Assembly (NCBI GenBank): GCA_963762115.1
Contig: CAVXJH010000003.1
Span: forward strand, 160,001-224,000
Reading direction: 5' to 3'
Length of the DNA stretch: 64,000 nucleotides
Origin: Candidatus Babeliales bacterium
GTDB taxonomy: Bacteria > Babelota > Babeliae > Babelales > JANWKD01
Part shown: piece after piece, positions 1 to 6,000 of the stretch
How the letters are laid out: the number at the start of each line of letters is the position of its first letter
How positions within the stretch are numbered: the first letter of the stretch is position 1
Program-made: the position numbers

Positions 1-3000
1 GTTGCGCTTGATCAGTTCAGAAATTTGAATATCTATTCACCGGAAGATTTTTTGAGCATTGATTGTGCAACGCAACGTAATTTAGAGTTAGTAAAAAATA
101 CGCAAGATGGCAGCAGAAAAAATACCTTATTTCAGGTGATGGATGGTGCCGTGACGGCAATGGGATCACGTACTATAAAAAAATGGCTTATGCGACCTTT
201 AGTGACATTAGATGCCATTAAACAACGCCAGGATGTTGTTGAGCGATTTATATTTGATATTTCTTTGGCGCAACATATTCGAGCTTTGTTACAGCGCATT
301 GGTGATGCAGAAAGGGTTATCGGGCGTATAATTTTATCGCGTGCTTCAGTGCATGATTACACTGCTTTATTAACGATTTTGCATAGTATTCCTGAACTTT
401 ATAGTTCTTTGCAGCAAGATACTATGCCGTCGTTATTGCGTTCTATAGCGCACTATTTGAATAGTGGTGATGTTTTATGCAAAAAATTATCATGTGCATT
501 GAATACTGATACGTCAAAAGAATGGATTATTGCTGCTGGTTTTAATGAACGATTAGATGTGCTGCGTGATCTTGTGGAAAAAAGTACGGTATTATTACTT
601 GAATTTGAAAAACGAGAACAAGAAAAGACGGGAATTTCTTCACTTAAAGTTCGCTATAATACTATTCAAGGATATTATATTGAAGTTACAAAACCGAATG
701 CTCATTTGGTGCCTCTTGATTATATTCGTTCACAATCCTTAGTGGGTAAAGAGCGTTTTACAACGCTTGAACTTAAAAAATTAGAAGCAGAAATGAATGA
801 AGCGCGCTTGTATATTGATCAAGTAGAAAAAGATCTTTTTGCAAGTCTTAAGGCTGAAGTAATGTCTCATGCAACGAGTTTGCGTAAAATAGCGCAAGCA
901 TTATCACAATTGGATGCGTTATTTGGGTTTGCACAGATTGGTTATTTGCATGGCTATGTTCGACCAATTTTTAATGATGAACGCACGGTTATGATCAAGC
1001 AGGGGAAGCATCCTGTTGTTGCTTCGCAATTACAGAATCATTTTATTCCCAATGATACACAACTTTGTGATGAAAAAACGTTGTGGATTATCACCGGGCC
1101 AAATATGGGAGGTAAATCGACCTATTTGAGACAAGTTGCTTTGATCAGTATAATGGCGCAGTGTGGCTCATTTGTGCCTGCTCAATCGGCTAATGTACCT
1201 TTGTTTGATAAAATTTTTTCACGTATTGGGGCTGGTGATAATGTTGCTGGCGGTAAAAGTACCTTTTTAGTTGAAATGGAAGAGACTGCTTTAATTTGTA
1301 CACAAGCAACCCCAAAAAGTCTTATTATTTTTGATGAGATTGGTCGTGGCACGAGCACGTTTGATGGGCTTGCCATTGCGCAGGCGGTTATTGAATATAT
1401 TTATTCAATAGTGAAGGCGCGGTGTCTTTTTGCCACCCATTATCATGAATTAACGGTTTTGCAAAAACAATTTCCTGGTATTGTCTGTTATCATGCAGCA
1501 AGCAAAAAAACTGTTGCCGGCATTTCATTGTTATATTCAATTCTTGAGGGTCATGCTGATGGTAGTTTTGGCATTGATGTTGCGAAAGTTGCGCATATGC
1601 CTGATCCGATTATTCGTCGTGCTCAAGAAATATTACAACTGCTTTTGGAGCCTTCACCAGAGCAAAAAGGCGCTCTTATGCAACTGCCCAATGATGTTTT
1701 GATTACCTTACGTGCGACCGTTGAGCAACAGAAAGAACTTTTGTCTGATTTATATGAGTTAGATTATAATAATCTTTCGCCCAAACAGGCATTTGATTTT
1801 TTATGGGCTATGAAAGAGAAGATTGATAAGTAAAAGGGCGAATTATAATTCGCCCTTTTGATTTTGTGTTCAAATGTTATTTGATTATTGTTGTGCCTTC
1901 AGTAGTTTTTATAGCTCTTGTTGATTTTGTTGAGCCACCAAAAGAAGTTCCTTCAGTAGTTTTAGGTTGTTTCTTTTCAACGGGCAATATATTTACAAGT
2001 TCGCTTTTATAAATAACTAAGCGACCAATTGCATACGCAATAAAATGTTTTGCTTTTTCGTTTTGAGCAATGAAAGTACCTTCAGTTGTTTTTATAATGG
2101 CAGGAGTTAATGTTGTTGGCGCTGATGTTATGATGCCGCCATGTTGAATATTTGCAGGTATTACTACTTCAGGCAATACTTTTATTTCTGTAAAGTGTGC
2201 ATGTAAATTTTGTACTAAGTTAGCAGCATTCGCTACTAATGCCAATATCATGCCTGCAGGTCCTTCAGTGAAACCAGGAACTTGACCTTTTACAGCATCA
2301 GCATATGATTCGCCGTTATAAAGATTGACTAAAACTTTGATAAGATTATCAACGGTTATTTCTCGAATAGCAACTGTTGTTGATAATACTTTTTCAAGTT
2401 TTTCAGAAGCATTTTTGTATGCATCATGTAATGCTAACGATGCAGCCTGAATGTTCAAAAGTTCATTCTTTGTTAACTTTTTAAAGTTTGCATCAATTAA
2501 TTTTTTGAAATCTGACGCTGCTGTTAATGGTAAAAGTTTTTTTGTTTTTACTACTATTGACTCATTGGTGATATCGGCAATGTCTTTTGCAAGAGCATTA
2601 AGGGTTAATGCAGGAGTGTTTTCTCCAGCAAAGGCCGCGTTTGTTAAAGCTAATAAACCGGTTATTAAGATTAATTGTTTTTTCATGATAATACCTTTCA
2701 AATTTTTGATATATAAAATTATATGCAATAAAAAAAATTATTGCAGCTTATTAAAATAAGAGCATGGGGAAAAATAGGATTGAGGTCTCTAGTATCATAT
2801 AAAGAGTTTTTAACAAAGCAGCTGATTAAACCAATACTGCTTATCTCTTTTAAGGATAGCCAAAAAAGTGTTTAGAATTCAATGGTTTTTGCATTATTCT
2901 TGGGTTATTACTGTTTTTTTTAAAAATGTATGAGTCTTCCTAACACATAACGCGCTCTAAAAGCAATAGTTACCTCAAAATTGTTGTACTATGCTGTTGG

Positions 3001-6000
3001 TATTAAAAACGTATAGGTTCCATACATGCGTTGAATTATTGATTTTTTCTGTTCAACAGTCAAATTTGGGAGTAGGAGATCATTAAGATCTTCAATGAAT
3101 GGATATTGATCATCCAAAGGAAGATCAGTCGTGCTTTTTTTCAATTCATGTACCCAAAAAACTAATAATCCTTGATCGGTATATGATATTTCTGTTGTAT
3201 TACTATATTTGTTTAAGGTGCGATGGAGTAATCTAATAGTTTTTTTTAGGGGTAGATTGTTTTTTTGATTAAAATAGCTAAGACCGCTTTTTCCGGTATT
3301 ATAAAGCATTTTTGCTAAAAGTACGGTGGGGAATAATGCTAGTAATTCAATAATGAGCCTGTATGATCTTAGTGTTTTTACAAGGAGGTTGTGAGTTTCT
3401 ATTACATCTTTAGCCACTTCAGTTCCTTGGGTCTTGGCGTGTAATAATTCAATTTCTATTGCTTGGGGTAGTTCTCCATAGATTGTGTTTCTAATTGAGT
3501 TTCTCATTAAAATATTTCTATCGCGTATAATTTTGGCAATATGGCCTTTATTGGCGTCTTCAATTTCTTTTTCTATGTCATGGTTGCTTGCTGTTTCAGT
3601 AATTTTATTTCTTGGCCAAAAAAAATCTCGCGTTGCTCGCCAATAATACCCTATTGTTCCTGAAATTCCATGCATTTCTTGATTTTGATTCAGTTGTTCT
3701 CGATATGATCGTATTGCTTCATTTCTTGCTTGTCGTTCAATTTCTACTGATTGTTCATCAATTGGTTGTTTTTCTATGAAAGCTGATTTGTCAGTAAGTG
3801 TTTCTATTGAGTTCACAATAGGATCGTGCATATGTGTTTGCCAATAATTATTTAATGCAGTATTGAGACTAGAATACCATTGTTTAATCTGTTCTTGGTT
3901 TTGATAAGCATAGGTTGCCAAAGCAAGAGCACCTATGGTTGTCGCTGAATAGGCAAACCAGTTTCTTCTAAAATGATTTGGTTTTTTATAACCAAAATAG
4001 GCATGCAGCATTCTTTTTTTGAAGGTGATGAGGTTTTTTTTATTACTTATGAGTAATTCTGCCCACTGAGTTTTGGGTAGTTGTTCTGGTTGAATTTCAT
4101 GAGGGGGCGGTAGAGGTTTATAGGAAACGCATTGTTCGATAAGTAAGAGGAGTTCACGCATGTTTTTTTCAATTTCTTCGGTTGATTTTTCCTGGTAGTT
4201 TTGGCCGAGATAATATTGAATACTACCCAAATAATAAGCATTTTGCTCTAATGCTTGTTTTAAAAAGGTAATTTTTTCATTAAGTTCTTGTTGCTGTGAT
4301 TTTTCAGAAAACCAACCGGTTGGTCCTTTTGAAATAAAATAACTTAATGAGGTTAATTTTTGCATTCTCCAATAATCAATATTTTCAGAAAGTTCACGAA
4401 GTATCTCTAATAAATCTTTTCTGAGTTCTTGTGCTTGATTGCAGCAACTTCTGACAAAATGAAAGTTGATTTGGTTCATGGTTGGCAAGGGGACAAGTAC
4501 CGATGAATTTTGTGCCGCTAGGGAAAAACAGGTTAATAGTGCGAATAAATAGAACTTTATTTTTATAGGTATGATCATAAAATTCCTCTTTTTTGCTGTT
4601 AATTTTAGTAAAAATAGGTAAGATATAGTTTATACCATATCACAAAAGGCATTATTATTCTAAGGGTACGTTTTTTAAGGTAATGCATAAACATTCTAGA
4701 CAGAATGATACAATATGGTAAACTAAAAGGCAGATATTTTTTCATTTAAAGTAATTCCAAAAGGAAATTTGATGGCAACAGAACAAAAAACATCTTTGTT
4801 TCCTCGTTATGCTATTTTTCAAACGGGCGGTAAACAGTATCAGGCAATTGAAGGAAAAACAATTGCTATAGAAAAAATTGAAGGTGAAGCTGGTACTAGC
4901 TTAGAATTTAATGATGTTTTGCTTCGCAAAAATAGTGATAATGACATTCAGGTTGGGCAGCCATTTTTAGGGAATCCTATTAAGGCTTCTATTGTAAAAC
5001 AAATGCGCGGACCTAAATTAATTGTTTTTAAATTTAAAAGACGTAAAAAATCACGAGTAAAAAAGGGTCACCGTCAAGCAATTACTGTTATTCGTATTGA
5101 AACGATTTAACAGAATTCTTTATCCCTTAAAAAATTAAAAAGCCTCCTGAATGGGAGGCTTTTTTTATGATGCTAATTTTGCTAGGGTAATAAGTTTTTC
5201 TATAGGACCGGCAAAGAGTAATTGTTCATCTTCATTAACTAAATAATCGACATCAATGGGAATGATGGTATCATTCTTTCTGACTGCTATGCAGTGAATC
5301 ATATATTTATCAAAAAGCCGTAACTCTCCTATTGTTTTTCCAACAAATTTTGAAGGAGTAATGATTTGGCTAAACCCAAAATCTTGGGTAATTCTGGTAA
5401 TATGCGCATAGGGATAGCTTAAATCATCAGCTAATTTGCTACCAATTTCCTGTTCAGGTAAAACAACTTGATCGGATCCAATAAGTTTCAAAATATCTTT
5501 ATGGATTTCACTAACGGCTCTCGTGATAACGCGAGGAATATTAAGTCTTTTTTTTAATAGCGCGGTAACCAAAATAGATTGTGCAAAATTTTCGCCCATA
5601 GCGACAATTACGGTATCCATTTCTTCAATGCCAATAGAGCGCAATGATGATTCATCCTGTACTTTTAAGCATACTGACTGGGTAATTTGATCGCGTATTG
5701 AGGCAACAATTGATTCATTGCTATCAATACCAAGAACCTCCATGCCATTTTCAGCTAAGGTTGTGGCAACTCTAAAGCCAAAACGACCAAGGCCAATAAC
5801 GCAAAATTTCATACAATAGTACCCTTTCTTGTAATTAACCTAATATAATTCTTTCTTCTGGATAAGAAAATTCTGGATTTTCATGTTTTTTCCAGAAAGC
5901 GAGTACCAGACCTAAAGCGCCAATTCGCCCAATTATCATGCTTAGTATAATAAAAAATTTTCCTGTTGAAGATAAATAGGGGGTAATTCCTGTTGATAAT

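Follow-up and report, generated by a model that had tools for sequence, protein, structure and literature searches.

The founding member of Pfam family PF08637 is Nca2 (nuclear control of ATPase 2) of Saccharomyces cerevisiae, known by its genetic effect on the mitochondrial ATP6 and ATP8 transcripts. Camougrand et al. are said to have described, in 1995, a phenotype of yeast Nca2 on ATP synthase subunits 6 and 8. To our knowledge, NCA2/DGS1 is regarded as a eukaryotic invention, and we know of no molecular action assigned to it. In an in vitro import assay, the yeast Nca2 precursor is reported to have failed to reach a protease-protected place (PMC5881500). Arabidopsis DGS1 (DGD1 SUPPRESSOR 1) belongs to the same family and is named as the plant orthologue of Nca2 in the paper on Andalucia godoyi. 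Reviews place plant DGS1 in the mitochondrial outer membrane, linking TOM40/TOM20 to MIC60 and affecting mitochondrial lipid composition and cristae (PMC7865480, PMC8154082). Eukaryotic members are helical proteins of this membrane, and the plant one belongs to the MICOS/lipid-trafficking complex. Through DGS1 the family has a role (outer membrane, MICOS, lipids) that has been studied better than its name from yeast would lead one to expect. A third relative, Nca2 of the jakobid Andalucia godoyi (P0065), is nuclear-encoded and predicted to be mitochondrial, and it has no N-terminal signal-like segment.

A protein of this family is encoded in an intracellular Candidatus Babeliales bacterium, within a stretch of 64,000 nucleotides (contig positions 160,001 to 224,000) referred to here as the window. 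Its surroundings are as follows.

1..1833, plus strand: 3' part of mutS, converging on the locus and forming one edge of a conserved slot
1831..1860, no strand assigned: terminator-like GC-rich hairpin, from a consensus scan only, lying between the minus-strand pair and the mutS that converges on it
1877..2728, minus strand: open reading frame of at most 283 amino acids downstream of the NCA2-like gene, with a signal-like start at Met14
2989..4578, minus strand: NCA2/DGS1-like gene of 529 amino acids, single copy, an open reading frame with an ATG start and a Pfam NCA2 match of 70.4 bits
3013..3918, minus strand: stretch matched by PF08637 in the Pfam search and in the six-frame genome search
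4769..5110, plus strand: rplU (ribosomal protein L21), diverging from the NCA2-like gene and forming the other edge of the slot

A six-frame search of the whole genome found one copy, at window 3013-3918. The GC content of the gene (0.33-0.34) is the same as that of its flanks, and its neighbours are bacterial housekeeping genes; beyond rplU lie trkA, trkH, a VTT/DedA gene and glycyl-tRNA synthetase. The open reading frame at 1877..2728 matched no Pfam or NCBIfam family and is possibly co-transcribed with the NCA2-like gene; the consensus scan found no terminator-like site between the two. In other families an unrelated exported open reading frame occupies this position.

The genome-wide survey's note had assigned the C-terminal 300 or so residues to Pfam NCA2, and the same residues were recovered here (221-522 on model positions 9-289 of 289; E 1.9e-19, bit-score cut-off 20.6). 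Its claim of homology to the eukaryotic protein was borne out by two further comparisons. An exhaustive phmmer search matched, at E 6e-15 to 6e-9, proteins named NCA2 from Andalucia, Planoprotostelium, Acrasis, Willaertia, fungi and an oomycete; Andalucia godoyi scored best among the named eukaryotic relatives (E 6.3e-15), and the fungi Dipodascopsis, Calcarisporiella and Lobulomyces were matched directly at E 3e-10 to 6e-9. Alignment of 29 bacterial against 10 eukaryotic proteins by hhalign gave a probability of 100% (E 4.1e-53, 452 columns), covering bacterial positions 55-510 of 537 and eukaryotic positions 113-651 of 658, and so reaching beyond the Pfam region. Judged by sequence, the Babeliales protein is a true relative of eukaryotic NCA2/DGS1 over nearly its whole length. 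The four close relatives listed by the survey do emerge from a word-indexed search, but that there were only four was an artefact: such searches scored about 8,000 candidates (7,999 in that instance) and gave only the nearest kin of the query. The range of the family was therefore taken from phmmer, which found 303 proteins at E<=1e-3, 100 of them at E<=1e-10. The predicted model is confident and all-helical and has no solved relative: Foldseek gave no match to the PDB at E<=1e-3 (best E 0.16), and the best of 48,161 chains compared by VIA-align (Z 8.9, 111 residues, rmsd 3.8) belonged to generic helical bundles, below the level that is meaningful for helical proteins. A literature search found no report tying NCA2 to bacteria.

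The protein can be divided, from its N-terminus, into six parts, all on the minus strand.

4513..4578, minus strand: residues 1-22, N-terminal hydrophobic signal-like segment (KD 1.77 over residues 2-20)
3964..4467, minus strand: residues 38-205, N-terminal helical domain (helices 39-193 at pLDDT >90 in the predicted model)
3901..3963, minus strand: residues 206-226, first conserved hydrophobic segment, of moderate hydrophobicity, at the same alignment position in bacteria and eukaryotes
3358..3900, minus strand: residues 227-407, middle helical region, where conservation is lowest among bacteria and highest among eukaryotes
3295..3357, minus strand: residues 408-428, the other conserved hydrophobic segment, in which Pro417 stands where the helix breaks (415 in the predicted model)
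2992..3294, minus strand: residues 429-529, C-terminal helical bundle, with the end motif Gln-Lys...Arg-Met-Tyr-x-x-Tyr-x-Phe-Leu common to both groups

The N-terminal domain, which hhalign aligns with eukaryotic NCA2 outside the Pfam region, carries a near-invariant Tyr69-Trp70 and, just ahead of the first hydrophobic segment, the motif Lys-Pro-x-His-x-x-Arg-Asn-Trp; W70, G118, R205 and Y210 are near-invariant columns. The two hydrophobic segments, a trait of the family, lie at conserved positions, the same as in Andalucia Nca2. Over 19 residues the first has a median KD of 1.03 in 130 bacterial and 1.11 in 10 eukaryotic proteins (0.93 in this protein), and the second one of 1.64 and 1.77, respectively; the latter contains a Glu and a Lys in this protein and the conserved proline, P417, which is invariant in alignment set A1 (the first set, with 29 labelled bacterial members) and near-invariant in set A2. 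In the C-terminal bundle, G470 is invariant, D497, K511, Y522 and L525 are near-invariant, and conservation is equal in bacteria and eukaryotes (pair identity 0.269). Between the hydrophobic segments the strong conservation of the eukaryotic proteins is not found in the bacterial branch: across residues 263-395 the pair identity is 0.131 among 130 bacterial-side proteins as against 0.341 among 10 eukaryotic ones. This marks a divergent branch and does not exclude it from the NCA2/DGS1 family. The bacterial branch has kept both hydrophobic segments and the helical domains at either end; the middle region has drifted. Bacteria and eukaryotes have in common the Tyr-Trp pair of the N-domain, the Arg-Asn-Trp collar, Pro417, Gly470 and the C-terminal motif, and these residues point to the core function. 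By family alignments that contain no plant sequence, DGS1 is likewise all-helical and has the C-terminal motif and both hydrophobic segments; the bacterial protein differs from it in its export signal, in its weakly conserved middle region and in a genome that has no Mic60. Yeast Nca2, at 616 amino acids, is about 90 residues longer and, unlike the bacterial protein, has no signal peptide.

The signal peptide claimed by the survey corresponds to a hydrophobic signal-like segment at residues 2-20. Small residues stand, by eye, at -3/-1 before Ala22, and model confidence falls at residues 24-28. A segment of this kind is present in 29/29 labelled bacterial members of set A1, in 116 of the 130 bacterial-side representatives and in none of the 10 eukaryotic proteins; 23/23 additional open reading frames also start, by eye, with a hydrophobic stretch. 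The bacterial branch has gained an N-terminal export signal.

The gene is more widespread in the phylum than the survey had counted. PF08637 was indeed recovered in all four genomes of the same family, yet the figure of 30 of 260 Babelota proved too low, since a six-frame search with this model matches 64/261 genomes at E<=1e-3, this one included, 54 of them exceeding the cut-off. A profile built from 29 bacterial members matched 101/261 genomes in 10 of the 21 families, and one of 46 members matched 104, among which four matches were borderline (E 4e-4 to 9e-4); the broader profile brought no solid additional matches in families seemingly devoid of the gene. With the 29-member profile, two families, f2 (0/41) and f17 (0/35), had none. 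The gene is absent from about 60% of the genomes of the phylum, which argues against a core envelope function, and occurs as tandem duplicates in two genera. Restriction of bacterial NCA2 to Babelota holds as far as sampled: none of 14 control genomes matched PF08637, and in an all-bacteria locus search a single-protein query returned nothing and a close-alignment query only a relative of the same genus. NCA2/DGS1 is present in Discoba, Amoebozoa, fungi, stramenopiles and plants, and no further prokaryotic relatives were found. The family, otherwise reported only from eukaryotes, is old and widespread in this bacterial phylum and gains a large, old bacterial sister branch of some 100 genomes and well over 100 sequence clusters. 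Fifty loci were examined, and in 19 of them the NCA2-like gene stands beside rplU and/or mutS; these 19 represent six families (f1, f3, f7, f10, f12 and f16). The same slot also houses exported proteins that vary, and one family has ankyrin-repeat genes there, which is the company expected of host-interaction genes.

The reading preferred here, at a probability of roughly 40%, is that of a membrane protein of the bacterium's own envelope acting in membrane or lipid organisation. The Sec system would export the N-terminal domain, and the two hydrophobic segments would hold the protein in the inner membrane of the bacterium itself. With two membrane passes, the N- and C-terminal bundles should lie on the same side, together in the periplasm; such an arrangement fits four fold-search rows, each with one small helical bundle whose alignment runs from residues 40-60 to residues 525-529. 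A positively charged collar rich in Arg, His and Trp may sit at the membrane surface. The whole could serve as a scaffold for envelope membrane or phospholipid organisation, a bacterial counterpart of DGS1 between the two mitochondrial membranes. A lipid role is hinted at by the effect of plant DGS1 on lipids and by a gene order of family f21, where 7 of 9 loci with long flanks carry a pgsA/clsA-like CDP-alcohol phosphatidyltransferase, a small exported protein, the NCA2-like gene and ssb on the same strand, with gaps of 0-260 bases. Dependentiae are thought to scavenge host lipids. The envelope proposal is weakened by several observations. Net positive charge on the N-side of segment 1 and on the C-side of segment 2 misfits the simple positive-inside rule for the proposed topology, the lipid neighbourhood belongs to f21 only, the protein evolves fast, and the company in the slot is of another kind. 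The genome studied here has three CDP-alcohol phosphatidyltransferase genes, and the NCA2-like gene adjoins none of them. Full export to the periplasm or beyond may also occur, given that segment 1 is only moderately hydrophobic (0.93) and segment 2 carries Glu and Lys.

Rather unlikely, but deserving serious consideration, is an exported protein aimed at the host: it would exit the bacterial cell along a type II-like route or packed into outer-membrane vesicles and insert into or bind the host mitochondrial outer membrane, as a stand-in for host NCA2/DGS1 that holds or reshapes mitochondria beside an ATP-importing parasite. The protein joins a signal peptide to a domain otherwise typical of eukaryotes, the combination by which candidate effectors of Dependentiae are recognised, and the signal-like N-terminus runs throughout the labelled bacterial set and is missing from the eukaryotic one. 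Eukaryotic members are reported to be mitochondrial outer-membrane proteins tied to MICOS, and Mic60 (PF09731) exceeded the cut-off in 0/261 genomes of the phylum, with three weak sub-threshold matches, a count of gene presence and not of binding. The known plant partners would consequently need to be host proteins. One cultured species of the phylum is reported to multiply while enclosed by the host mitochondrion and to have signal peptides on 44% of its genes (PMC6561590). The accessory, fast-evolving nature of the gene (about 40% of genomes), its tandem duplicates and the exported and ankyrin-repeat genes of the slot also suit a host-directed protein. On the other hand, a Sec signal followed by hydrophobic segments, the second with its median KD of 1.64, normally retains a protein in the inner membrane, so that the internal segments argue for retention over release into the host, and the route across the outer membrane is hypothetical here. 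Moreover, the middle region, where a mimic should be constrained, is precisely what the bacteria conserve least, and one syntenic slot with a mostly single-copy gene in six families is unlike typical effector turnover. For the biology of Dependentiae the gene is a candidate for envelope lipid handling, or for the mitochondrial remodelling seen in the cultured species.

By analogy with yeast, where the phenotype concerns subunits 6 and 8, the protein could be a factor that assembles or regulates the bacterium's own, unusual F-type ATP synthase, but this is very improbable. The yeast name suggests it, and a table of the Andalucia paper lists Nca2 among complex V assembly factors. However, subunit a, the Atp6 homologue, occurs in 252/261 genomes (188/189 of high quality), the NCA2-like gene in only 101; families f2 and f17, which lack that gene, have subunit a in 40/41 and 33/35 genomes. 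No ATP synthase gene adjoins the NCA2-like gene at any of the 50 loci, and the eukaryotic protein is reported in the outer membrane, away from ATP synthase. The link that the survey had drawn to the bacterium's ATP synthase is therefore unlikely. The survey had also overlooked the plant orthologue DGS1.

The family is otherwise eukaryotic, and the nearest language-model clusters all carry the label Eukaryota, so that one might think of eukaryotic DNA contaminating the assembly or of a gene captured recently from the present host. Contamination is refuted, and recent capture deserves practically no credence, since the gene lies among bacterial housekeeping genes between mutS and rplU, at local GC content, on a contig of more than 500 kb, the slot is kept across six families, identity to eukaryotic proteins is merely 24-26% over matched stretches, and the eukaryotes form a separate clade.

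In the gene tree, the eukaryotes, Andalucia Nca2 included, group together in a single clade that is separate from every bacterial copy (support 96-99), so that there was a single inter-domain transfer in ancient times; a topology with amoebozoans as sister was not rejected (p-AU 0.345). Family labels require 12 changes against a minimum of 10, and the tree largely follows taxonomy. The bacterial copies all share one side of it, and the gene goes with family taxonomy and with synteny. Eukaryotes and the Babeliales lineage therefore exchanged it once, long ago, in either direction; for the same reasons, "host-derived", as the survey put it, does not hold in the sense of capture from a current host. 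Since the exchange, descent has been vertical, with losses in many lineages, and the protein has changed rapidly: between-family identities are 22-27% as against 52-57% for MutS. The question arises in which direction a MICOS-associated protein moved between early eukaryotes and obligate intracellular bacteria. The deeper and wider sequence diversity is bacterial, and a single short branch (0.25) joins the eukaryotic clade to a bacterial backbone that the tree does not resolve; on these grounds NCA2/DGS1 might have passed from a Dependentiae-like intracellular bacterium into eukaryotes before their last common ancestor, a scenario we regard as improbable though arguable. If true, it would make NCA2/DGS1 a parasite-derived, non-alphaproteobacterial component of the mitochondrial envelope.

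With respect to a conserved partner gene, the small exported protein encoded upstream in f21 was undetected (best E 0.043) among the open reading frames that lie downstream in the rplU-mutS families, and BLAST of the exported open reading frames neighbouring the gene gave no matches across groups. Among the f21 loci themselves, this small exported protein is conserved.

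The 529-aa protein encoded between mutS and rplU is, as judged from sequence comparison, a solid and full-length homologue of the mitochondrial protein NCA2. In a PF08637 (NCA2) search, it scores 70.4 bits, where the cut-off is 20.6 (E 1.9e-19), residues 221-522 covering model positions 9-289 of 289; an NCBIfam search of the protein gave nothing meaningful. Many phmmer matches also cover residues 40-300. That search, with the window protein as query, was exhaustive over 1.84 billion cluster representatives and returned 303 proteins at E ≤ 1e-3, of which 100 reach E ≤ 1e-10 and 10 reach E ≤ 1e-30. 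Among the 150 matches listed, ten proteins were looked up and eight bear eukaryotic names: Andalucia godoyi Nca2 (E 6.3e-15), Planoprotostelium (1.6e-14), Acrasis (2.1e-10), Dipodascopsis (2.8e-10), Willaertia (3.3e-10), Calcarisporiella (1.0e-9), Lagenidium (1.4e-9), and Lobulomyces (5.9e-9). Profile-profile comparison of 29 bacterial with 10 eukaryotic members aligns 452 columns with a probability of 100% (E 4.1e-53). The genome-wide survey's note had claimed an NCA2 homologue in this bacterium, and the Pfam score, the named eukaryotic matches, and the profile-profile alignment uphold it. Landmarks common to bacteria and eukaryotes are the Tyr-Trp pair Y69-W70, Lys-Pro-x-His-x-x-Arg-Asn-Trp immediately ahead of the first hydrophobic segment, Pro417 within the second, Gly470, and a C-terminal Gln-Lys...Arg-Met-Tyr-x-x-Tyr-x-Phe-Leu.

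The gene lies in the following setting.

Features of the window
1-1833, plus strand: mutS, on one side of the NCA2-like gene
1877-2728, minus strand: downstream ORF of at most 283 aa, with a signal-like start at Met14
2989-4578, minus strand: NCA2-like gene, ATG-initiated ORF, 529 aa
4769-5110, plus strand: rplU, on the other side, with trkA, trkH, a VTT/DedA gene, and the glycyl-tRNA synthetase gene beyond it
21994-22434, plus strand: CDP-alcohol phosphatidyltransferase gene, 17 kb away from the NCA2-like gene

The place between mutS and rplU, the occurrence of a single copy in this genome (six-frame search, 1.53 Mb, 7 contigs), and a GC content equal to that of the flanks mark it as a bacterial chromosomal gene; contamination as its source is ruled out by GC content and surroundings. 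No family was found for the downstream ORF, which carries three copies of a Lys-Thr-Thr-Glu-Gly-Thr motif close to its C-terminus; in other families, the same position is held by an unrelated exported ORF, often coiled-coil. The genome has three genes for CDP-alcohol phosphatidyltransferases, and the one in the window scores lowest (59.6 bits).

The gene is more widespread in the phylum than had been reported. The PF08637 model, applied in six frames at E ≤ 1e-3, matches 64 of 261 genomes (54 above cut-off), and a profile of 29 bacterial members (A1) matches 101 (83 of the 189 high-quality genomes); the survey's family count was too low against both. A broader 46-member profile (A4) reaches 104 genomes, four of them marginal (E 4e-4 to 9e-4).

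Genomes matched by the A1 profile, by family of the phylum
f1: 4/4
f3: 15/16
f5: 14/14
f7: 1/1
f10: 1/1
f12: 10/10
f16: 2/2
f18: 11/12
f20: 2/4
f21: 40/80

With A1, no match was obtained in f2 (0/41), f17 (0/35), and nine smaller families. Marginal matches aside, A4 adds no family, so that the absences are not merely a narrow-profile effect, within the reach of such models. None of the 14 control genomes contains a match. The note's "only four relatives" is an artefact: the search behind it scored 7,999 candidates. For 143 further phmmer representatives, the best BLAST match fell among 52 labelled Babeliales proteins in 142 cases and among eukaryotes in one; membership of these 142 in the Babeliales phylum is likely, short of proof, since 73 of the best matches are below 30% identity. 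By language-model similarity, the closest cluster (score 0.96, 479 aa, 57 members) has the label Eukaryota, with Rotifera the most frequent group, which suggests Babeliales-like copies within rotifer assemblies, by contamination or transfer.

The AlphaFold2 model (140 aligned sequences; pLDDT 88.2, pTM 0.72) is predicted to be all-helical, with 20 helices, and fold searches of solved structures gave generic helical bundles and nothing beyond. Two hydrophobic segments keep their position in both groups, residues 206-226 and residues 408-428, the latter with Pro417 at a helix break. Their median hydropathy over 19 residues is 1.03 and 1.64, respectively, in 130 bacterial-side proteins, and 1.11 and 1.77 in 10 eukaryotic ones. 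Bacteria and eukaryotes have the same charge pattern around the segments; as a simple positive-inside rule does not account for it, the topology stands as a prediction from sequence. The N-terminal export signal described by the survey is borne out, a signal-like segment being found in 29/29 labelled bacterial members, in 116 of 130 bacterial-side representatives, and in 0/10 eukaryotic proteins; most of the 14 bacterial-side proteins lacking the call are narrowly sub-threshold or seemingly start late.

Pair identity by region
Middle region (residues 263-395): bacterial 0.131 (lowest), eukaryotic 0.341 (highest)
C-terminal domain: bacterial 0.269, eukaryotic 0.269
N-terminal domain: bacterial 0.191, eukaryotic 0.167

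The NCA2 family is already known, and database proteins bear the Pfam label; what is new is a bacterial branch with a predicted signal and a different conservation pattern. In the literature covered, outside which most subscription journals lie, nothing was found that ties NCA2 to Dependentiae or another bacterium, texts naming PF08637, IPR013946, or "nuclear control of ATPase" were fungal work only, and none was found naming DGS1, the plant orthologue, together with NCA2.

The gene is vertical, old, and fast-evolving. Between families, identity to the window genome is 22-27% for the NCA2-like protein, 52-57% for MutS, and 68-75% for L21 in the same genomes; a same-genus relative (locus L111) is 57% identical to the window protein. 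On a MutS tree of 56 genomes, presence and absence of the gene amount to 11 changes, at least three of them forced by well-supported branches. This points to an early single gain and many losses, the species proxy being weak (a single gene, FastTree, weak backbone). A FastTree of 168 rows was built from the 29 labelled bacterial proteins and word-indexed and phmmer matches of 400-720 aa, leaving out shorter or longer proteins and L021, truncated at its locus end. It contains a ten-protein eukaryotic clade (support 99; seven named then and three unnamed, of which P0068 was later recognized as Planoprotostelium), and every labelled bacterial protein lies on the opposite side. An IQ-TREE analysis (LG+C20) of 62 rows, 52 labelled bacterial and 10 eukaryotic with unlabelled metagenome proteins left out, gives the split again (SH-aLRT 96). 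The recovery of fungi (99), fungi with Planoprotostelium (95), and Discoba (96) matches the expectation of vertical descent. Most bacterial families come out as one clade each, with family labels changing 12 times on the tree where 10 is the fewest possible. The trees are limited by the short branch (0.25) leading to the eukaryotes, by an unresolved bacterial backbone, and by a difference in composition between bacteria and eukaryotes. A tree joining all bacterial copies with the amoebozoan sequence is not rejected by the AU test (log-likelihood difference 10.0, p 0.345). There was a single exchange, predating the radiation of the carrying families; the trees do not settle in which direction it went or where the eukaryotes attach.

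Gene surroundings were compared in 50 loci, 30 with 1.5-kb and 20 with 2-3-kb flanks.

Neighbours of the NCA2-like gene
rplU (diverging) and/or mutS (converging): 19 loci; f1, f3, f7, f10, f12, f16
ybeY: 9 loci; f5
ssb: 13 loci; f21
between glmM and serS: 5 loci; f18, f20
HIT and LigD genes: 2 loci; one f21 genus
transposase or amidase: 2 loci; f1

The mutS-rplU stretch (window 1833-4769) behaves like a slot of variable content. An f19 genome without the gene (L108) has nothing in it: mutS is directly followed by rplU and then, matching the window, by trkA, trkH, and GlyRS. The slot is occupied by five ankyrin-repeat genes in an f9 genome (L110), and in six families it holds the NCA2-like gene and a variable exported ORF. 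In f21, 7 of 9 long-flank loci (L031, L032, L042-L045, L050) carry, in this order on the same strand with gaps of 0-260 bases, a phosphatidyltransferase, a small exported protein, the NCA2-like gene, and ssb, with a further small exported protein also in the cluster. The transferase is of the pgsA/clsA-like CDP-alcohol type, and those genomes carry one further paralogue of it; in NCBIfam, the transferase of the cluster scores best against pgsA and ClsA, under cut-off in both cases. The small exported protein is conserved, Cys-rich, 129-157 aa long, and without a family.

Yeast NCA2 is reportedly named for its genetic effect on ATP6/ATP8 expression. An excerpt of one study (PMC5881500) reports that the yeast Nca2 precursor is not imported in vitro to a protease-protected place. 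The Andalucia paper places Nca2 among complex V factors and calls the plant orthologue a MICOS subunit; passages of two reviews (PMC7865480, PMC8154082) describe DGS1 as an outer-membrane protein linking TOM40/TOM20 with MIC60, its orthologues being present in yeast and absent in animals. Mitofilin/Mic60 was found above the Pfam cut-off in 0/261 genomes of the phylum, with three weak matches; an extract of PMC6561590 mentions a distantly mitofilin-like CDS in a cultured species.

We favour, at a probability of roughly 40%, a tentative reading in which the NCA2-like protein would be the bacterium's own envelope protein: the two hydrophobic segments would anchor it in the membrane, the N- and C-terminal bundles would be exported, and the anchored protein would take part in organising the membrane or its phospholipids. 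This preference follows from the distribution failure of an ATP synthase role, the lack of Mic60, and the f21 phosphatidyltransferase neighbourhood. The main rival, that the exported protein acts on host mitochondria, is less likely: the hydrophobic segments and the drift in bacteria of the region most conserved in eukaryotes speak against it, whereas the universal signal among bacterial members, the accessory and fast-evolving character of the gene, its slot company, and the mitochondrion-wrapping biology outlined for a cultured relative in the same extract (PMC6561590) agree with it. A role in the bacterium's own ATP synthase, also raised by the survey, fails the distribution test, subunit a occurring in 252/261 genomes and in families without the NCA2-like gene.

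Two f21 genera have the NCA2-like gene duplicated in tandem or nearly so (L031 1949-5521; L032 2382-5993; L048 2383-6481). Each of the two copies has a well-supported clade of its own, common to two genomes, so the duplication is older than those species. In one f21 genus, MutS matches contain in-frame TAG codons (two in G214:C21:88247-89941, one in G215:C30:10236-11936; genome:contig:positions), which could reflect a broken gene, sequencing errors, or recoding.
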